DNA of 64,000 nucleotides from Candidatus Omnitrophota bacterium (GTDB lineage: Bacteria; Omnitrophota; Omnitrophia; Omnitrophales; Aquincolibacteriaceae): the NCBI GenBank assembly GCA_003140935.1, contig PLLJ01000034.1, positions 79,505 through 143,504 on the forward strand, read 5' to 3'. The position numbers and the translations under genes were made by a program. Of this stretch, positions 13,034-40,833 are shown piece by piece. Position 1 is the stretch's first letter, and each line of letters starts with the position of its first letter. The notes below the pieces were generated by a model. That model was not told where the DNA came from, did not search any database, and was given only the letters and a program-made list of their open reading frames with translations.

Positions 13034-13492
13034 TTATTTCGGCTTCGCCAGCAGAGACTTAAGCTCTTTCATGAAATGGCCCACATCCTGAAAATCACGA
13101 TAGACACTGGCAAAACGCACATAAGCCACCTGATCGATCTTTGCGAGATGCTGCATGATGAACTCCCCGATGACCCGGGACGGAACCTCGCGGTCATACT
13201 TTTCACGGATCGTGGTTTCCAGATCATCCGCGACTTTCTCTTGAGCCGCAAGCGGAACGGGACGCTTCTCGCAAGCCTTGTACACCCCGGCGAGGACCTT
13301 GGAACGCTCATAGGCCTCGCGACGATGGTCTTTTTTCACCACGAACATCGGGATCTCCTCGACCCGCTCATAAGTGGTAAATCGCTTACTGCAAGCCGTG
13401 CACTCGCGCCGCCTGCGAACCACCTCCCCTTCGTTCGCCCCGCGCGAATCGATCACTTTGTCAGAATCCTGTTTGCAGAAGGGACAACGCAT
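13034..13492 (-). CDS. nrdR: transcriptional repressor NrdR
   Basis: MRCPFCK...C..C Zn-ribbon followed by an ATP-cone (EEIPMFVVKKDHRREAYERSKVLAGVYKA). Confidence 0.85.
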   Translation of the reverse strand: MRCPFCKQDSDKVIDSRGANEGEVVRRRRECTACSKRFTTYERVEEIPMFVVKKDHRREAYERSKVLAGVYKACEKRPVPLAAQEKVADDLETTIREKYDREVPSRVIGEFIMQHLAKIDQVAYVRFASVYRDFQDVGHFMKELKSLLAKPK

Positions 13493-13507: not shown

Positions 13508-14770
13508 TTATTGAAGTTCCGGATAAAGCGGAAACTTTTGGGTCAAAGCTTCGACCCGCGAAAGAACTTTCGCAAGATTCGCTTCTTCGCCGGGAGCCTT
13601 GAGCGTTTCATCGATGAGCTCGGCAATGAGCTCCATTTCCTTTTCTTTCATCCCGCGCGTGGTCACGGCAGGCGTTCCCAAGCGAACCCCGGACCCTTTA
13701 AAAGGCGATTCTTTGTCGAACGGGATCATGTTCTTATTTACCGTGATCTTTACCTTGTCCAAAAGCTCCTGGACCTGCTTTCCGTTAAAACCCTTCACCG
13801 TCACGTCCACGAGCATAAGATGATTGTCCGTACCGCCGGAGACGATCCTCCAGCCGCGCGCGGCCATTGAGCTCGCAAGTGTCTTGGCGTTTTTCACGAT
13901 TTGAGCGCTGTATTCTTTGAATTCCGGGCTCGAGGCTTCTTTCAACGCCACCGCCTTGGCCGCGATCACATGCATGAGCGGACCCCCTTGAATCCCCGGA
14001 AACACGGCGGAATCGATCGCTTTCGCATATTTCTCTTTGCAAAGGATCAGGCCTGCGCGAGGACCGCGAAGGGTTTTGTGCGTCGTCGTGGTCACAACAT
14101 CCGCGTAGGGCACGGGACTGGGGTGATGCCCCGTGGCCACAAGACCTGCGAAGTGCGCCATATCCACCATCAGAAGCGCCCCGACCTGGTCGGCAATTTT
14201 CCGTCCTCGTTCAAAATCAATGATCCGCGGATACGCCGACGCACCCAAAAGGATCATTTTAGGCTTATGCTCTTTGGCTAAATGCTCCAAGGCGTCATAA
14301 TCGATCCTCTCATCCTTCGGGCTGACGCCGTACGGAATGATCGTATAAAATTTCCCGGAATAATTCATTTTATGGCCATGAGACAAATGGCCGCCATGCG
14401 TCAGGTCCATCCCCAGGATCTTATCCCCCGGCTTCAAGAGCGCCATGAAGACCGCGATATTAGCCGAGGTCCCGCTATGGGGCTGGACATTCGCGTGCTC
14501 GGCCCCGAAAAGCTGCTTCGCGCGATCGATCGCAAGTTGTTCGACCACATCCATATTTTCGCAGCCCCCGTACCAACGCTTAGCCGGATATCCTTCGGCG
14601 TATTTGTTCGTCAAGACCGATCCCATCGCCTCGAGGACGGAAAGCGAAGCGAAATTCTCGCTCGCGATCAGTTCGATATTCTCATTCTGCCGGCGAACTT
14701 CCGCACGAATCGCGTTATAAATATCCGGATCGGTTCTCTTAAGCTGCGTTTGATCGATGATGCTTTTTTT
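13508..14770 (-). CDS. glyA: serine hydroxymethyltransferase
   Basis: [12 protein letters not shown], the PLP-lysine region [14 protein letters not shown], and about 420 aa from MKKSIIDQ. The ORF-track start 14818 is an N-terminal over-extension. Confidence 0.9.
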
Positions 14771-15209
14771 CATAAGCCTTGATTTTGTTAACACGGACCT
14801 CATGTCGTCCCCTTTCAAATGGTGTGTTGAGCCAGGTATCTACGAGCGGAAGGATAATATCTTGCGGCAAAAACCCCGAGCCGAGGATCAGCATATTGGA
14901 ATCATTATGCCCCCGGGAAAGGCGCGCTTGTTCGATATTTTGGCAAAGCGCCGCGCGAACGCCATCGACCTTGTTGGCCGCGATCGTGCTCCCGATCCCG
15001 GTGTAACAGATTCCGATCCCACGTTGGCATTCTTTGCTGGCCACCTTCTCGGCCGCGGCGATAATAAAATCCGGATAATCACAGGACTCGTCGGTAAAGG
15101 CGCCGCAGTCAATCACCTCGAAATGTTTGTTCTTGAGAAAATCGATCAGCGCGTTCTTCAATTGAATGCCGCGGTGATCGGCAGCGATCGCAATCTTGGG
15201 TTTCATCAT
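14739..15209 (-). CDS. rpiB: ribose-5-phosphate isomerase B
   Basis: [10 protein letters not shown]...[13 protein letters not shown]... is the RpiB/LacAB family signature. 156 aa. Confidence 0.8.
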
Positions 15210-27133: not shown

Positions 27134-28060
27134 TCAGCCTCGGGGATGAAATTTCGCGTGGATGGATTTGAGGCGGTTCCCGGAGACATGCGTGTAGATC
27201 TGCGTCGTAGAAATATCCGCATGGCCGAGAAGCTCCTGGACCACACGCAGGTCCGCGCCGCGCTCCAAAAGGTGGGTCGCAAAAGAATGGCGGAACGTGT
27301 GGGGGGTGATCTCCTTGGTGATACCGGCAAGCCGCGCATATTTTCCGATCATCTGCCACACAAATTGCCGCGTCAGCCCTTTCCCGCTTCGGCCCAGAAA
27401 AAAATGCTCGGTCTTGGCCTTCATCTTGGAACGGACCCTGGCAAGATAGGTCTGGCAAGCCGAGACCGCGACACTGCCGAGCGGTACAAGCCGTTCCTTA
27501 TCCCCTTTGCCGCGACACTTGATGAACTTATTATCCAGATACACATGCCCCAAAGGAAGTTCCGTGATCTCTGAGACCCGCATCCCGGTCGCGTAAAGAC
27601 ACTCCAAGAGCGCCAGGTCCCGTATCCCTCCGGGCTTTTTGACGTCTGGCGTCTTGAGAAGAGAGTCCATTTCCTGCGTGGTCAAAAAATGAGGCAGTTT
27701 TTTCCAGAGTTTCGGCGATTCCAGGACGCTTGTAATGTCGCTCTGGACATGGCGTTCTTTAGTGAGAAAACGGTGGAAAAGCTTGACCGAGACAAGTCCT
27801 CGGGCGATCGAGGAAGATTCGAGACCCCGTTTACTTTCCGCGTTCAGGAATTTCAGGATATGGGTCCGCGTGACCTTCGCCCAGTCTGAAACCTTTTCTT
27901 TTTTCAGGAAGGAGTCGTAACGCGCGAGGTCCTGCCGGTAGGCGTCCAGCGTATTCTGGGCCAGCCCTTTTTCCACGGAGAGATAGTTCAGAAACTCCTC
28001 GAAAAGGAGTTGGCTCTTGTCCTTAGGTTTCTCTGCGGTTACCGGTGCCGTATCCATCAC
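27134..28060 (-). CDS. xerD: site-specific tyrosine recombinase XerD-like
   Basis: R..HTFRHSFATHLLERGADLRVVQELLGHADISTTQIYTHV with the catalytic Tyr; N-terminal SAM-like core-binding domain; 308 aa. Confidence 0.8.
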   Translation of the reverse strand: MMDTAPVTAEKPKDKSQLLFEEFLNYLSVEKGLAQNTLDAYRQDLARYDSFLKKEKVSDWAKVTRTHILKFLNAESKRGLESSSIARGLVSVKLFHRFLTKERHVQSDITSVLESPKLWKKLPHFLTTQEMDSLLKTPDVKKPGGIRDLALLECLYATGMRVSEITELPLGHVYLDNKFIKCRGKGDKERLVPLGSVAVSACQTYLARVRSKMKAKTEHFFLGRSGKGLTRQFVWQMIGKYARLAGITKEITPHTFRHSFATHLLERGADLRVVQELLGHADISTTQIYTHVSGNRLKSIHAKFHPRG

Positions 28061-28156: not shown

Positions 28157-28981
28157 TCATGGTTTTTTGCTATCGGTAGAAGAGCCGTAGGTGCGACACA
28201 GGGCTTTCTTTTCATCCGGATCGACAAAGAGCAGTTTTTTGTTGTCGTACCTCTTTCTCGCTAATTTTCTCGTCTCGGCCTGTCCGGGCGGCATGAGAGT
28301 CAGGGTATCCAGATATTCTGATTCACGGTCCGCGCAAACGGCGACTTCCATAAACTGGTTCAGGTCCGTGTCCAGATCTAAGACATCACCCCGTTTCATC
28401 CTAGCCAGCATGAGCGCTCTCAAAGCGTCAAAGTAATCCGTCATACCCTTTCTTTCGTACCGGGCCCTTTCGGAAAAAATCGCGGCTTTTCTAGAAAGAA
28501 GGCTTATGTCTCCGGGACTTCTTTTTAATTCCTCATCGATCTCTCTGAGGGCTTTTCCTCTCTCATTGCGAAGACCCAAATAATACCTGGCCCTGCGATA
28601 GACCTTCTTGGCGTCCCACACATACCATTTGGACTTTTTGGGAATAGCATCGTAGGCAATGATCGCGACCTCTTTGCCTTCCAAAAAAAACTGCCATATA
28701 TCGGGACGAGGCTCAGGCCCGTACTTGGGGGGTTCCGGGGATACAGCAAAATATTGATAGCCTTGGCCGACCACATATTCGCTGATCCTATACAGATCTT
28801 TGTTGGACATGCGGGGACTTGGAACCGGCCATTCGGTTTTCACCAGAGAATCATAGATGTCATAGCTGTCCAGGACCTTCACCTGGTCCTCCAAAGAATC
28901 CGCCCACAAAAGACCTGCCCCGGCAAAAAACAGCAGGACCATAAAACAAAATAATATTTTGCAATTCCCGGCAGGCATCAT
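28157..28981 (-). CDS. secreted hypothetical protein
   Basis: 274 aa with a signal peptide (ILFCFMVLLFFAGAGLLWA); no motif recognised. Confidence 0.45.
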   Translation of the reverse strand: MMPAGNCKILFCFMVLLFFAGAGLLWADSLEDQVKVLDSYDIYDSLVKTEWPVPSPRMSNKDLYRISEYVVGQGYQYFAVSPEPPKYGPEPRPDIWQFFLEGKEVAIIAYDAIPKKSKWYVWDAKKVYRRARYYLGLRNERGKALREIDEELKRSPGDISLLSRKAAIFSERARYERKGMTDYFDALRALMLARMKRGDVLDLDTDLNQFMEVAVCADRESEYLDTLTLMPPGQAETRKLARKRYDNKKLLFVDPDEKKALCRTYGSSTDSKKP

Positions 28982-29050
28982 TTAACTCCGGACTTTTTAA
29001 GTTCGAGCGAACGCGGGTGCTTCTTCCCTGGCCCGATCCCCTCACTTTGT

Positions 29051-30154
29051 TTATTCTTCAAACCGCACCGCCAAACCTTCGTCCAGCAATTCCTGGTTCA
29101 CATAGATGTAGCTGTCGGCCCGGACGGGAACGGCAGGTTCCTGGCGAAGCCGTTCTTGCTCATTGGGGACAAGGGCCACCCAGACATCCGCCAGGTAACG
29201 GTCGTACTTGTCGGACTTAACGGTCCTGATGAGAACGGGCGTTTTGGCTTTAAGGAGCCGCTCTTCGAGAAAAGCCTTGGCCTCCTGGCCGTCGGTGCTT
29301 ACGATCTCCGGAGCGTCCAGCCCGCGCAGACGCAGTTTCTGGACGGTGGTGAATCCGAACCCGAGCGGGACCGCGGCCTTGAGCGTGTCGCCGTCGATCA
29401 CTTCGATCACGTCCACCGGGTAGGTGTAAAGGGCCTCCTCGCCGGCTTGGGATTTTTGAAGCTTCCCTTTTTCAAACGTCACAATATCGCCTTCCTGCAA
29501 ACCGGTTGTGTTCTCCGGCTTGAAATAATTCGAAAACCCGAGGTCCAGCACCAGCGCGCCCGTAAATTCCCCGGCCGTGGCCTTGAGAACGCGATACGTT
29601 CCCGGGATTCCGGGACGGGCCTCGAGAGGGACTTCGGCTGGCAAAGGAGCCCCGGCAGGAACTTTCAGTTTCTTGATTTCCCGGCGAAGTTTTTTCTGCG
29701 ACCAGTGGTGGCTTTCGGCCTGCTTTGTCATTTGCTCTCGTTCTTTTGAATCATTCAAAGAAAGGAGTTCACGATAATGTGCCCAGCTCAATTTCCCCGG
29801 CGCCGGGGCAATTGGGTAAGCCCTGGCGAATCGAAGCATATAGCCTAGTTCCGTGTCACTCACACCCAGATCTTTGGCGAGTTTAAGAAGGACCTGTTTT
29901 CCGTACTCGGCCCGTTCCTGATGAAGCAGAATGTGTTCGTCGATGAGCTTCCCGGTCTCCCACGCCTCACGGACCTTTTCCTGCGCCACGGCCTGCGCAA
30001 CCCGCTTCTGACTTTCGGTCCTCACCTCACGGATCGCCGCCACCAGTTGGTCGTACGTCTCGACCTTCGACAGAGCCGCGGTTTGTGCCTGTAATGCTCC
30101 TGAACTTATGAGAACCAGAATAAGAAAAATACTAAAGATTTTTATTTTTTTCAT
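29051..30154 (-). CDS. secreted nuclease: DUF1016 (YhcG) N-terminal domain fused to staphylococcal-nuclease-like (SNase/thermonuclease) domain
   Basis: Signal peptide MKKIKIFSIFLILVLISSGALQA. YDQLVAAIREVRTESQKRV...ERAEYGKQVLLKLAKDLG...LGYMLRFARAYP matches the YhcG_N (DUF1016) consensus. The C-terminal VIDGDTLKA...LRGLDAPE...KSDKYDRYLADVWV matches the SNase fold motifs. Confidence 0.6.
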   Translation of the reverse strand: MKKIKIFSIFLILVLISSGALQAQTAALSKVETYDQLVAAIREVRTESQKRVAQAVAQEKVREAWETGKLIDEHILLHQERAEYGKQVLLKLAKDLGVSDTELGYMLRFARAYPIAPAPGKLSWAHYRELLSLNDSKEREQMTKQAESHHWSQKKLRREIKKLKVPAGAPLPAEVPLEARPGIPGTYRVLKATAGEFTGALVLDLGFSNYFKPENTTGLQEGDIVTFEKGKLQKSQAGEEALYTYPVDVIEVIDGDTLKAAVPLGFGFTTVQKLRLRGLDAPEIVSTDGQEAKAFLEERLLKAKTPVLIRTVKSDKYDRYLADVWVALVPNEQERLRQEPAVPVRADSYIYVNQELLDEGLAVRFEE

Positions 30155-30642
30155 GACTTCAGCCAATCCAGAGGCCGCCGCCCTGCCATTCGCATACACT
30201 GATCCTTCAGCTTCTTGAGCCGGAGGGTGATGATCTCAATGTCGCCGCTCGGATCGTCAAGCTCCAGGGTGCCTTCTTCGCTGATGTCCTTGATCTCGCC
30301 CGTCGCGATCATTAAATACTGGCGGCAATCGTGGATGAGCATTTCGAGCATATCCAGTGTCCCGTTCTCGGGATACACGGTAAGCGACCGCAGGTCCTTG
30401 CGCTTCCGGGACCAATCCGCGAGGATCCTGCCCGCTCTCCGACCGTCCTCCACCACGACCCAGAGCGCCACGCCCTGCCCGGTATAAAAGGAACGCCCGC
30501 CAAGCTCCCGGGAATCCGTGGCGGCGCGAATCCCGTGCTTGCGCAAATAAGCGATCGCCTTCCGCGCCCCGGCCAAGGTATGGAACCGTTCCAGATTACA
30601 CATTGGTACTGTTTCTTTTTCCTTCCTCATTTTCTTTCCCAT
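30151..30642 (-). CDS. hypothetical protein (possible DUF2007-like small alpha/beta domain)
   Basis: 163 aa; 4-bp ATGA overlap with the downstream nuclease gene suggests translational coupling. Confidence 0.35.
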   Translation of the reverse strand: MGKKMRKEKETVPMCNLERFHTLAGARKAIAYLRKHGIRAATDSRELGGRSFYTGQGVALWVVVEDGRRAGRILADWSRKRKDLRSLTVYPENGTLDMLEMLIHDCRQYLMIATGEIKDISEEGTLELDDPSGDIEIITLRLKKLKDQCMRMAGRRPLDWLKS

Positions 30643-30664: not shown

Positions 30665-30692
30665 TGCCGTATATCATATATGATATACGGCA
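30665..30692. promoter_or_regulatory. perfect 28-bp palindrome, candidate operator
   Basis: TGCCGTATATCATAT|ATGATATACGGCA, located 23 nt upstream of the 30151-30642 start codon. Confidence 0.4.
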
Positions 30693-30725: not shown

Positions 30726-31580
30726 TTACGTGCCACCCGAATTACCAGACCCCTTTTTATTTAAAAAAAATGGTGTTCGTATTTCATCAAGAAAGGGAAC
30801 ATCTTCTAGTTTGACCTCGGGAGGGTTTATTGTATCGATATCTAAATATTTTTGACTAAAAACTAACACGTATGAATTTAAAAAAATGGAAAATGCGTGC
30901 GCAATCGATGTCACTTCATCGATCATTTTTTCAAACTTGCCTTTCAACTCATCTGGATCATTCCCTTGTATTCCTAAAGCCTGCAAAATCATGAGTTGGT
31001 GTGAAAGAACATAACAACAATTTCCATCTGTTTCCCCTAAGAAAATATGTGGGTCTTTGATAACATTAAATTTCTTTCGCTGATGGAAAGCTTGCTCCAA
31101 GTCATAGTGAAAACCAAATTTATTACGTAATCGTTTGAGCAAATTATTCTTTAAAAAATAATCCTGTATTTTTTCATTTGCTTTTTTAGCTTCACCGCTC
31201 ATTGCCGGCATAAAAGTATCGGCTAATGGCCTTAGCTTCAATTTCGTAATTTTCTTTTGCTTTGTTTTGAATGCTCTACACTTCAGCGGAGTACCTGGAT
31301 TTGCATAAAAGCCAAGCTGTATGAAATCAAAAGTTTCACAACACATACCAGCCAGCATCCTTATAAAACAAAATGATTGGGCAACTTGAGCGCTGGTTTC
31401 TGGAGAATTAGGATTATTTAGAGGCATCGCGGCAGTCGAATGCAAAATAGCCTTCTGGAGAACAGATATATCGTTAAGAATGCTCATAGCCCTTAAGAAA
31501 AACGCCGTTTCCTGCTGCGGAGCCTTTCCGAGCATATCAATAGGAATTTTTAATTCATAAAGAAATAATGATTTACCCAT
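30726..31580 (-). CDS. hypothetical protein in a strongly AT-rich (about 37 % GC) gene; possible HEPN-like RNase (R-x5-H)
   Basis: 284 aa. GC content drops sharply relative to the flanks. LRNKFGFHYD provides a single Rx4-6H motif; no other recognisable domain. Confidence 0.4.
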   Translation of the reverse strand: MGKSLFLYELKIPIDMLGKAPQQETAFFLRAMSILNDISVLQKAILHSTAAMPLNNPNSPETSAQVAQSFCFIRMLAGMCCETFDFIQLGFYANPGTPLKCRAFKTKQKKITKLKLRPLADTFMPAMSGEAKKANEKIQDYFLKNNLLKRLRNKFGFHYDLEQAFHQRKKFNVIKDPHIFLGETDGNCCYVLSHQLMILQALGIQGNDPDELKGKFEKMIDEVTSIAHAFSIFLNSYVLVFSQKYLDIDTINPPEVKLEDVPFLDEIRTPFFLNKKGSGNSGGT

Positions 31581-31613
31581 TTATCCTTATAAAAATTAAA
31601 ACGCAAAGACGCA

Positions 31614-33707
<2,094 letters not shown>

Positions 33708-38898: not shown

Positions 38899-39803
38899 GA
38901 TATTTTTTCGATCACTCTCAGTTTGGCGCTTCTTGCTCTTGGATTATTCAATATTTCCGAACGGTTTGCAACTACTGGTTTACGAAAAATCAAACTTCCG
39001 CGCTCCTCGTCGTCCCATTTCCGGAACTGACGCTTCACGATCCTGTCCTCCATCGAATGAAAGCTGATAATTCCGAGCCGCCCGGTCTTAGTGAGATGAT
39101 CGAACGCCGCGGTCATACCTTCCTTGAGCGCTTCCAACTCATCATTGACTCCGATCCGGAGAGCCTGGAACACTTTGGTCGAGGGGTGACGCCGTGCCCA
39201 GGATGGCCTCTGCCCTTTTTTAAATCTCATATGGGCGGGCAACGCTTGTTCCAGCGTCTGGTTGAGATCTTCGATCGTACGGATGGGTTGTTGCCGCCGT
39301 CTTTCTACAATGACACGGGCAAAACGGCGTGAGTTGCGTTCTTCGCCATAATGATAGAAAAGATCCGCAAGCTCGGCTTCAGACATTTGAGCGAGCAGTT
39401 CTGAAGCCTTAAGACCGACTTCCGGGTTCATCCGCATATCCAATTCCCCTTCCGTTTGGAAACTGAAACCGCGCTTCCCATCCGCCAATTGTTCCGACGA
39501 GGTCCCGATATCTAAGAGTACTGCGTCGAATGCCGCCACTCCCAGTCCCGAAAAGACTTTCTCTAAATTCCTGAAATTCTCGTGCACCAACGTGACCCGC
39601 GGATCCTTTTGGAACAACACACGGCAACGCGCGATCGCCTCAGGATCCTGATCAAATCCGATCAATTTTCCTGAGGGACCTATTACCCCGAGGATCGCCT
39701 CCGCATGCCCTCCGCTCCCGAGGGTCCCATCCATCACAACAGCCCCGGGTTTTAAAGCGAAAGACCCAAGAACTTCCTGTAAAAGAACGGGGTTATGCCG
39801 CAA
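38895..39803 (-). CDS. rsmH: 16S rRNA (cytosine1402-N4)-methyltransferase RsmH (MraW)
   Basis: VMDGTLGSGGHAEAIL, DQDPEA and LLDIGTSSEQL motifs. Confidence 0.9.
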   Translation of the reverse strand: MRHNPVLLQEVLGSFALKPGAVVMDGTLGSGGHAEAILGVIGPSGKLIGFDQDPEAIARCRVLFQKDPRVTLVHENFRNLEKVFSGLGVAAFDAVLLDIGTSSEQLADGKRGFSFQTEGELDMRMNPEVGLKASELLAQMSEAELADLFYHYGEERNSRRFARVIVERRRQQPIRTIEDLNQTLEQALPAHMRFKKGQRPSWARRHPSTKVFQALRIGVNDELEALKEGMTAAFDHLTKTGRLGIISFHSMEDRIVKRQFRKWDDEERGSLIFRKPVVANRSEILNNPRARSAKLRVIEKIS

Positions 39804-40131
39804 AACTAAGGATCGCCTCTTCTTCTGTCGAATAACTTTCCATCAAACCATTGACCCCGATCATCTGGAAAGTCTTTTCGACTTCGGGCCGCAAATTGCA
39901 CAATTTGATATCCCCTTTTTGTTCACGCACCTTGCGCAAACGGTCTACCAAAATGCCGACGCCCGCCAATTCCACATGTTTCGTATCTTTCAGGTCCAGC
40001 AAGAGGCGCTTGTGGTTTCTGTTAAGCAGACGGTTCATGCGACCTTTCATTTTGATCATGCTAAGAGCATCGAGATCTCCGTTGAAACGCAACACATCCA
40101 CCCCGACCTTCGTTCTGGCATGATAAACCAT
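39793..40131 (-). CDS. STAS-domain anti-sigma-factor antagonist (SpoIIAA-like)
   Basis: 112 aa; DLKDTKHVELAGVGILVDRLRKV carries the STAS fold signature. Confidence 0.65.
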   Translation of the reverse strand: MVYHARTKVGVDVLRFNGDLDALSMIKMKGRMNRLLNRNHKRLLLDLKDTKHVELAGVGILVDRLRKVREQKGDIKLCNLRPEVEKTFQMIGVNGLMESYSTEEEAILSFAA

Positions 40132-40144
40132 GATGACCCCTTTC

Positions 40145-40582
40145 TTATTCCGATACTAATTTTTCTGCGAGTTCTTCAAAGTGGTTCTTATGATTATCAA
40201 AAAAGCTTTGCCATTTTTCTTTTGCCCAGATTTCAATACGACTTGAAACTCCCACGATCATGACGTCCGTCTTAATGTCGGCATAAGTCTTAAGATAGTC
40301 CGGGATGAGGATCCTCCCCTGCTTATCGCAAACAACTTCGGAAGCACCCGAGAAAAAAAGCCGGTTGAAAGTTCTGGATTCGGCTTTGGTAAAAGGCATA
40401 TCGCGAAACTTTTTTTCTTCCGTCTTCCATTGTTCTTCGGTGAAAACAAACAAACATTGATCAAGGCCGCGTGTGATAAAAAAGCGCTCTACATAGCGCT
40501 CCTTGAAAATCTCGCGGAATTTGGCAGGGATCATCACGCGGCTTTTGGTATCGATCACATGTCCGAATTCACCGTAAAACAT
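40145..40582 (-). CDS. mraZ: transcriptional regulator MraZ
   Basis: 145 aa; duplicated DxxxR motifs in the contexts IDTKSRVMIPAKFRE and CDKQGRILIP. Confidence 0.85.
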   Translation of the reverse strand: MFYGEFGHVIDTKSRVMIPAKFREIFKERYVERFFITRGLDQCLFVFTEEQWKTEEKKFRDMPFTKAESRTFNRLFFSGASEVVCDKQGRILIPDYLKTYADIKTDVMIVGVSSRIEIWAKEKWQSFFDNHKNHFEELAEKLVSE

Positions 40583-40603
40583 GGATTTTCTTTCCTTTCA
40601 TAT

Positions 40604-40674
40604 TCCCACTTCATCCCACTTTATCCCACTTCATTATCGACGGCAGTATATATTTCCCTTAATATCGTGTCAAT
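40604..40674 (-). promoter_or_regulatory. mraZ promoter (TTGACA-17-TATACT) with three MraZ-box direct repeats (GTGGGA at 10-bp spacing) in the leader
   Basis: Minus strand: TTGACAcgatattaagggaaataTATACTgccgtcgataatgaAGTGGGAtaaaGTGGGAtgaaGTGGGAatatgaaaggaaagaaaatccATG. Confidence 0.65.
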
Positions 40675-40833
40675 ATTCTTTTTTATTGGGAATCCGTTAA
40701 ACCCATCCATAGTATCCTCCTAAAAAGGAACCACAAGATGATGGGCAAAAATATAGTGCTTAAGACAGAGCGGGGCCGCTAGGTTGTAACCTTAAGGGGA
40801 TGAGAGACGGCGAATGGTTGGAACGGAAGAAAG

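Follow-up and report, generated by a model that had tools for sequence, protein, structure and literature searches.

The stretch of DNA analysed here, a window of 64 kb, is part of a 288-kb metagenomic scaffold from a Candidatus Omnitrophota MAG, and its LigA is 70–86% identical to that of about 20 Candidatus Omnitrophota MAGs. Within the window the interval between ligA and xerD comprises four genes, namely the gene under study (hereafter the target), p163, a fusion of DUF1016_N with a staphylococcal nuclease, and p274. The features on which the analysis draws are the following, with coordinates given in the window:

27134..28060, minus strand: xerD, a housekeeping gene and the conserved downstream anchor of the islet (TIGR02225; synteny).
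28157..30642, minus strand: the other islet cargo, p274 (28157–28981), the DUF1016_N+SNase nuclease (29051–30199) and p163 (30151–30642), with host-like GC and patchy in relatives.
30665..30692, unstranded: a perfect 28-bp palindrome (TGCCGTATATCATA TATGATATACGGCA), operator-like and of the host lineage, at the downstream edge of the insert (recurs in relatives).
30726..31580 (stop codon included), minus strand: the target, an acquired gene for a 284-aa standalone HEPN-like predicted RNase (ORF with ATG start; family HMM; AlphaFold).
30760..31599, minus strand: nucleotide homology to L002, 78% over 840 bp, taken as the minimum foreign segment (blastn; converted from L001 9937–10776).
31107..31127, minus strand: codons of the Rx5H motif R152-N-K-F-G-F-H158, the predicted catalytic centre (R and H invariant in 102 sequences).
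31335..31337, minus strand: codon of E82, acidic and conserved (E in 97 of 102 sequences), within the model's second long helix (60–90).
31581..31613, minus strand: a 33-bp AT-rich spacer from the ligA stop to the target ATG, with a Shine-Dalgarno-like AAGGA at 31584–31588 (sequence).
31614..33668, minus strand: ligA, the gene of the NAD-dependent DNA ligase, the conserved upstream anchor whose 3' end is the landing site (Pfam; 77 related loci).

The initial annotation had described an 855-bp reading frame at 30726–31580, which is present exactly as stated, on the minus strand and with an ATG start. The GC content of about 37% given for it agrees with the 36.3% found here, and the context of about 57% agrees with the immediate flanks (53–60%), while the average over the whole window is lower, at 52.7%. 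Among 855-bp windows (mean 52.7%, sd 3.2%) the target reaches z = -5.2, and the GC minimum of the 64 kb at this length falls on it, in the window that begins at 30751. A second low-GC patch at 39.8–40.8 kb turned out to be simply where the conserved dcw cluster begins, with mraZ/STAS. The edges of the tract are sharp: GC is back at 0.53 or more no further than about 30 bp from where ligA stops (31614) on one side and about 40 bp from the target's own stop on the other. Codon usage unlike that of the neighbours had also been claimed and could be confirmed: GC at the three codon positions is 0.44/0.32/0.32, compared with a GC3 of 0.56–0.73 in nine neighbouring genes, and a CAI-like index calculated by leave-one-out is 0.53 for the target versus 0.66–0.81 for its neighbours.

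The target is a real gene under purifying selection, with a dN/dS of 0.12 in comparison with L002, the one homologue for which DNA is available. The family HMM matches it at E = 1.6e-72, and it is the sole copy within the window. The public gene call, P0001 (269 aa), begins at Met16 and leaves out the first 15 residues. Since these residues are conserved in homologues and are modelled confidently, as a beta-strand paired with residues 255–258, the 284-aa reading is the right one.

Nine window proteins were mapped onto 77 related ligA loci, in which a backbone of metallophosphatase, ligA, xerD, (p125) and purB is conserved. The gap between ligA and xerD measures about 20 bp in L040 and reaches 6.5 kb in L007, and is filled with differing cargo; in relatives a gene with a TIR domain, ORF6N/Rha-like genes and DUF1016 nucleases are among it. 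The target gene is absent at this position from all 77 loci, among them the closest relative L003 (LigA 86% identical), which keeps only p274 and a flavoprotein-like gene. Since the backbone is conserved and the gene is missing throughout, it was acquired and is not ancestral. From a word-indexed search of 5.8 billion proteins only three close homologues were obtained (65–73% identity), all residing on AT-rich or short metagenomic contigs, and the contig of the closest one, L002, has 35–44% GC. The target was thus acquired horizontally, as the initial annotation had proposed, and a gene of the same low GC at the same position in all relatives was not found. One could still imagine an ancestral Omnitrophota gene whose low GC stems from functional constraint, given that genes of this family are AT-richer than their flanks in other hosts too, which may partly reflect amino-acid composition. 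However, with the gene absent from every related locus, even that with an 86% identical LigA, a GC3 of 0.32 and so few close homologues, confined to contigs of the kind just described, we regard this explanation as scarcely credible.

The extent of DNA homology to L002, from 19 bp upstream of the target ATG to 34 bp before its stop, indicates that the acquired piece consists essentially of a ribosome-binding site and the ORF. At the junction between ligA and the target neither a terminator nor a convincing promoter could be detected, the scan for both remaining at background. As no terminator separates the two genes, read-through or co-transcription with ligA is likely. On the downstream side, the initial annotation had drawn the palindrome into its argument for a neighbourhood in which defence genes lodge. 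Its core, however, lies 15–25 nt upstream of small-gene starts in L005 (twice) and L013 (twice), both of which are without the target, and the palindrome is therefore host-lineage DNA belonging to the next gene, p163, outside the acquired piece. The xerD-like recombinase about 3 kb away, likewise cited there, is the housekeeping XerD (TIGR02225, 373.6 bits at a cutoff of 329.6; integron-integrase model, 137.9 bits at a cutoff of 265). Being an equivalog of XerD with synteny across the phylum, it provides no evidence for a mobile element. An integron cassette was considered for the window copy and rejected, the nearby recombinase being XerD and not IntI, and the palindrome being of the host lineage and showing, on inspection, none of the core sites of attC. 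The target is not flanked by direct or inverted repeats that would point to a transposon or to att sites, and nothing in Rfam came near gathering scores.

Other related loci carry different genes at the very same spot. L005 holds an unrelated AT-rich ORF of 269 aa (37% GC), L004 an AT-rich ORF of 557 aa (36% GC), and L007 a TPR protein of 559 aa (39% GC) together with a methyltransferase. Immediately upstream of the AT-rich ORF, L004 and L007 each repeat the final ~70 bp of ligA (85–87% identity). From this recurrence of varied cargo we infer that the 3' end of ligA is a hotspot for integration or recombination of mobile and defence-type genes. Within the window, p163 as a partner of the target could be ruled out, since it occurs in L014 without the target. 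Neither a restriction-modification (R-M), MNT or antitoxin gene nor any other recognisable partner was found in the window with Pfam, NCBIfam, PADLOC and PHROG models and a search for R-M/BREX homologues.

No model of Pfam, NCBIfam, PADLOC (PADLOC-DB v2) or PHROG matched the target. The target is nevertheless not an orphan: an exhaustive HMMER search of 1.84 billion representatives yielded 539 proteins at E <= 1e-3, of which 124 reach E <= 1e-10. Most of them have 240–260 aa, and the family thus numbers 539 cluster representatives or more (clusters at 50% identity). No member examined is named in any public source, and word-indexed searches with family profiles, in part confined to a capped number of candidates, added only further unannotated members, with no bridge to annotated AbiU2 proteins. 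The host backgrounds of the family span 25% to 69% GC. Over 55 loci the GC of the family gene falls short of that of its flanks by a median of 7 points, with extremes such as 0.43 versus 0.69, and a deficit of this size across such varied hosts marks the gene as widely mobile. A phage origin was tried and rejected, since none of 50,697 phage records matched and the family was met on a single IMG/VR contig. On plasmids, only a truncated homologue was found, in IS-rich Bradyrhizobium plasmids.

The family alignment comprises 102 of the family's sequences, with a mean column identity of 17%. Its only invariant columns are R152 (codon 31125–31127) and H158 (codon 31107–31109), precisely the arginine and histidine that the initial annotation had singled out in LRNKFGFHYD as a possible HEPN motif. 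The family signature reads [IV]RNxFAFHY, and the position following the arginine, 153, is occupied by the polar residues N (85 of 102) or D (9 of 102). Further well-conserved positions are F142 (99 of 102), N187 (96), P270 (98) and F272 (99). The Ex3[KR] pattern that many HEPN families show cannot be recognised around E82, there being no K or R at +4, and a subclade of P0056, P0088 and P0092 has alanine at the E82 position.

With the family alignment as input, AlphaFold returned an all-alpha model with a small N/C-terminal beta pair (pLDDT 94.1, pTM 0.91). It supersedes a model built from four sequences only, in which the motif region was poor (pLDDT 63.7). In the model, R152 sits at the end of helix 147–155 and H158 in the following loop 156–160, and extra helices are placed between the putative core helices. 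The HEPN core is all-alpha, four helices bundled up and down, in which an insert of varying extent separates helices 2 and 3. In HEPN proteins the Rx4-6H motif has been described as starting where a core helix ends and running into the loop behind it, usually with a polar N, D or H directly after the arginine; helix 2 often contributes an acidic residue that is conserved as well (PMC3710099). The position of the motif in the model agrees with this description. The leading structural matches likewise come from HEPN proteins:

Rank 1: 3jrt, score 8.6, of the 'Integron cassette HEPN' family in PMC3710099.
Rank 2: C-domain of kanamycin nucleotidyltransferase, score 7.9, HEPN superfamily.
Rank 3: HEPN-MNT toxin 7ae2, score 7.6, a HEPN RNase toxin.
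Rank 5: Las1L, score 7.4, HEPN superfamily.

Lower-ranked matches include Csx1, Csm6, AF0298, TTHA0636 and YutE. At the level of significance of a Foldseek search against the PDB no match was better than E = 0.1, and profile searches against PDB sequences gave zero matches. Among family members, P0088 matches HEPN_AbiU2 and P0056 the KEN (RNase 2-5A) domain of Pfam, both below threshold at about 14 bits and centred on the motif. The family consensus has no match in the sequence libraries, HEPN_AbiU2 at E <= 10 included, and no sequence library places the target or the consensus in any HEPN family. Taking the all-alpha model, the invariant R and H and the structural matches into account, the HEPN type suggested by the initial annotation holds up, no housekeeping fold having emerged, and we assign the family to the HEPN superfamily with reasonable confidence, though not with certainty.

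Within this assignment, the protein could be a non-catalytic helical regulator binding RNA or a ligand, comparable to the HEPN-like MtlR or the KNTase C-domains, in which R152 and H158 would serve binding. HEPN domains of that kind typically lose the Rx4-6H motif (PMC3710099), whereas here R and H are the sole invariants and a polar N follows the R. A mobile distribution in defence islands is, moreover, unlike that of a housekeeping regulator. We therefore consider a non-catalytic role very unlikely and retain the reading of the target as a predicted RNase.

The genomic contexts of the family were assessed in 81 further loci with 150 non-redundant neighbours within two genes of the family member. 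P0007 (39% identical to the target) starts 2 bp after the end of hsdS, and the ORF behind it matches EcoR124I HsdR at E = 1.7e-34. P0007 thus lies inside a Type I R-M operon, with hsdS on one side and hsdR on the other. P0006 (43%) carries an N-terminal HsdS fragment and is flanked by a Fic/RhuM gene and by BrxA/BrxB. P0009 adjoins a Phd-YoeB pair, P0163 a HicB-like gene in an otherwise housekeeping region, and P0092 lies beside an HNH endonuclease. L109 contains a bona fide integron integrase (TIGR02249, 330 bits at a cutoff of 265), and the first ORF diverging from it is the family gene, which takes the first-cassette position. The commonest Pfam domain of the neighbours is TIR (5, a raw count among 150), accompanied by AAA_21/AbiEii-like ATPases, BrxL, HsdM, Dcm, RmuC and IS200 transposases; PADLOC matches among the neighbours are mad2 (4), AriA/AriAB (PARIS), AbiLi and MkoA, again as raw counts among 150. 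With family members in Type I R-M, BREX, toxin–antitoxin (TA), integron and TIR/PARIS contexts, the proposed defence role gains support. Applied to the 102 members themselves, PADLOC matches only the HsdS fragment fused to P0006. A partner or antitoxin gene conserved in the family was not found, the largest neighbour cluster covering 6 loci, mostly near-duplicate contigs, and NTases are missing from the top 25 Pfam families, by frequency, of the 150 neighbours.

The proximity of family genes to Phd-YoeB, a HicB-like gene, IS elements and integrons, together with the frequent use of HEPN domains as TA toxins (PMC3710099; 7ae2, 5yep), would also fit a selfish toxin or addiction gene, whose RNase stabilises the carrying islets, integron arrays or plasmids and is not directed against phages. 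In such a case an antitoxin is expected. However, none is conserved in the family and none is found in the window, where an MNT-type nucleotidyltransferase is equally missing, and a lone toxin without antidote should be counter-selected, in conflict with the dN/dS of the target. Selfish maintenance is accordingly quite unlikely as an explanation of this gene.

A further possibility arises from P0007 and P0006, the nearest relatives with context, which are embedded in or fused to parts of Type I R-M systems. The native role of the family could be that of a PrrC-like RNase guarded by a Type I R-M or BREX complex and released once a phage has disabled it, with the window copy being an orphaned sentinel that is otherwise regulated or carried as silent cargo. 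PrrC itself occupies the same slot, between hsdS and hsdR, in the EcoprrI Type I R-M locus. Linkage to R-M operons has been reported for several HEPN families (PMC3710099). Most family loci, though, have no R-M neighbour and no partner is universal, the family is without the ATPase domain of PrrC, and the window contains no homologues of the R-M/BREX genes found beside P0006 and P0007; even so, the window copy is intact and evolves under purifying selection. An orphaned sentinel therefore appears unlikely to us.

We propose that the target is a recently acquired single-gene module encoding a standalone HEPN-type predicted RNase, most likely an effector of abortive infection or a toxin, and assign this reading a probability of roughly 60%. 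The AbiU2-domain cassette of V. mimicus described below is a direct precedent for phage resistance conferred by a HEPN cassette of one gene. The module would have been inserted precisely between the ligA stop and the promoter/operator of the next host gene. Its product would be an all-alpha protein of about 280 aa, built on a HEPN-type helical bundle core with the invariant R-N-x4-H. HEPN enzymes act as dimers with a composite RxxxxxH site and are metal-independent endoribonucleases (PMC3710099). By analogy, the target protein most likely forms a dimer that would bring two RxxxxxH motifs together into such a site. The RNase would be latent in healthy cells, and infection or the loss of a guarded system could lead to cleavage of host or phage RNA, whereby the infection would be aborted. 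RNase activity, dimerisation, trigger, RNA target and anti-phage phenotype are in this model predictions from analogy with characterised HEPN enzymes.

Considered jointly, the observations on the family and on the landing site might point to a widespread single-gene abortive-infection RNase system so far unrecognised (at least 539 clusters), which moves as a cassette of ribosome-binding site and ORF and fills the PrrC slot of Type I R-M operons, first-cassette positions of integrons and hotspots at gene ends. The ligA 3' end would then be a clade-specific integration site that repeatedly catches AT-rich defence cargo by duplication of about 70 bp of ligA. We put this broader picture forward tentatively, at somewhat less than even odds. 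If the proposed reading of the target as a HEPN defence RNase is correct, a sizeable HEPN family for which no model exists joins the candidate anti-phage effectors, and a candidate defence gene is added for Omnitrophota, an uncultured phylum. The locus also points to the 3' end of ligA as a place where foreign genes repeatedly settle in that phylum. The family alignment, the high-confidence model and the catalytic predictions (R152, H158, possibly E82 and N187) are ready for mutagenesis. Since current defence annotators miss the family, genomes carrying it are under-annotated. Both the HEPN superfamily as such and its part in defence are well known, and what is new is the family itself, absent from Pfam, NCBIfam, PADLOC and PHROGs. 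With HEPN defence RNases being a well-populated class, the conceptual advance is incremental.

In comparison with known systems, the closest structure, the integron-cassette HEPN protein 3jrt (Vpc_cass2, PMC3710099), is only 9% identical to the target with no match at the sequence level, and has 166 residues versus 284. Unlike 3jrt, the target family shows in its model additional helices between the putative core helices as well as the small N/C-terminal beta pair, and unlike an integron-cassette HEPN, the window copy is located outside any integron. The HEPN-MNT type VII toxins (7ae2, 5yep, 8xdj) differ in their MNT partner, which is absent beside the target and at the family loci; the target neighbours p163, the DUF1016_N-SNase protein and p274 contain no NTase domain. 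The target also has a motif spacing of Rx5H and is about twice as long as these toxins. With PrrC and RloC the family shares the logic of the catalytic R/H motif and, in P0007, the hsdS–hsdR slot. It differs from them in having no N-terminal ABC-type ATPase domain, in its much smaller size and in showing no sequence similarity, and the window copy has no R-M neighbours. A further comparison concerns AbiU2 (PF18734, HEPN_AbiU2), a single-domain lactococcal HEPN Abi family which has been reported in R-M operons (PMC3710099). The target (at E <= 1), the consensus and 99 of the 102 members are without a match to PF18734, the best score being 14.4 bits compared with a cutoff of 26.8, and no homologue carries a precomputed PF18734 tag, so that the family is not placed in AbiU2 or in any other named HEPN family. 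A likeness to AbiU2 is nonetheless visible in three of the 102 members, which match PF18734 weakly (E >= 0.006), one of them centred on the RNxxxxH motif. For an integron cassette of V. mimicus with an AbiU2 domain, a single gene whose product forms a dimer, protection against T4 and T7 has been described (preprint 10.64898/2026.03.17.712381).

We observed that in two related Omnitrophota MAGs (loci L007 and L004) the last ~70 bp of ligA is present twice, the second copy retaining 85–87% identity and lying 0.9–1.3 kb beyond the point where the genuine ligA gene stops. Directly downstream of this second copy begins a large AT-rich ORF, of 559 aa in L007 and 557 aa in L004, and the two ORFs have no mutual relationship. 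The arrangement looks like a trace left by an element that integrated into the 3' end of ligA and duplicated its target. The regions concerned are given here together with further features of the variable interval between ligA and xerD.

Features of the ligA–xerD interval in the window and in related Omnitrophota loci
Window 29051–30199, minus strand: DUF1016 N-terminal domain fused to a staphylococcal-nuclease domain, an unusual architecture
Window 30151–30642, minus strand: p163, an unannotated gene whose 3' end is overlapped for 49 bp by the start of the fusion gene
Window 30665–30692: palindrome copy
Window ~31621–31691: segment equivalent to the duplicated ligA 3' end
L004:2940–4327: region of the duplicated ligA 3' end
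L007:11962–12984: region of the duplicated ligA 3' end
L005 ~13057–13090: palindrome copy
L005 ~14054–14078: palindrome copy
L013 ~14863–14919: palindrome copy
L013 ~15151–15192: palindrome copy

A perfect 28-bp palindrome with the core CCGTATATCATATATGATATACGG occurs repeatedly in this hotspot in several Omnitrophota. It is placed 15–25 nt 5' of start codons, and the small genes that follow differ from copy to copy. The palindrome is probably a clade-specific operator for a repressor. As a separate observation, a TIR-domain gene is found ~130 bp downstream of one of the L005 copies.

In several relatives (L016, L019, L021 and L007) the fusion gene follows ligA immediately or almost immediately. 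Its DUF1016 part matches many PADLOC candidate models (PDC-S02), and the N-terminus of the encoded protein resembles a signal peptide.

The second-lowest GC patch in the window (41–47%, 39800–40800) was considered as foreign DNA and rejected; it contains mraZ and a STAS-domain gene, with which the conserved dcw cluster begins, and is therefore housekeeping.

Homologues of the predicted HEPN-like protein are found in diverse genomic settings. At L163:2820–10495, P0007 occupies the slot separating hsdS from hsdR in a Type I R-M operon. The same operon additionally encodes a DUF6036 protein and, in a gene that has no annotation, a product of 354 aa, with PLD-nuclease and RadC genes located upstream; this region is a compact defence island. 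A further member occupies a putative first-cassette position at L109:574–2283; next to it, in divergent orientation and across an AT-rich spacer of 277 bp, is a bona fide integron integrase that scores 330 bits on TIGR02249. In each of the three closest homologues a second unannotated gene trails the family gene on the same strand. It encodes 244 aa at L002:979–1713, while of those after P0003 and P0004 one encodes 334 aa and the other no fewer than 122 aa; no counterpart is present in the window. A distant homologue, truncated to 189 aa and annotated as a hypothetical protein, is located on the Bradyrhizobium japonicum plasmid pUSD135-3 (36178–36747), where it is preceded by a DUF2235 gene and surrounded by dense IS256, IS3 and IS110 copies, and three B. 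ottawaense plasmids show the same arrangement.

With respect to the protein itself, the public gene call, P0001, places the start at Met16; at 269 aa it leaves out 15 conserved N-terminal residues (window 31536–31580, minus strand), which are predicted to form a beta-strand pairing with residues 255–258. One subclade (P0056, P0088, P0092 and P0159–P0163) carries Ala in place of the otherwise conserved E82, within the motif AG[WF]EF, while retaining R152 and H158. All weak Pfam echoes that are traceable to named members come from this subclade, namely those to AbiU2 and the KEN RNase domain (P0088 and P0056).
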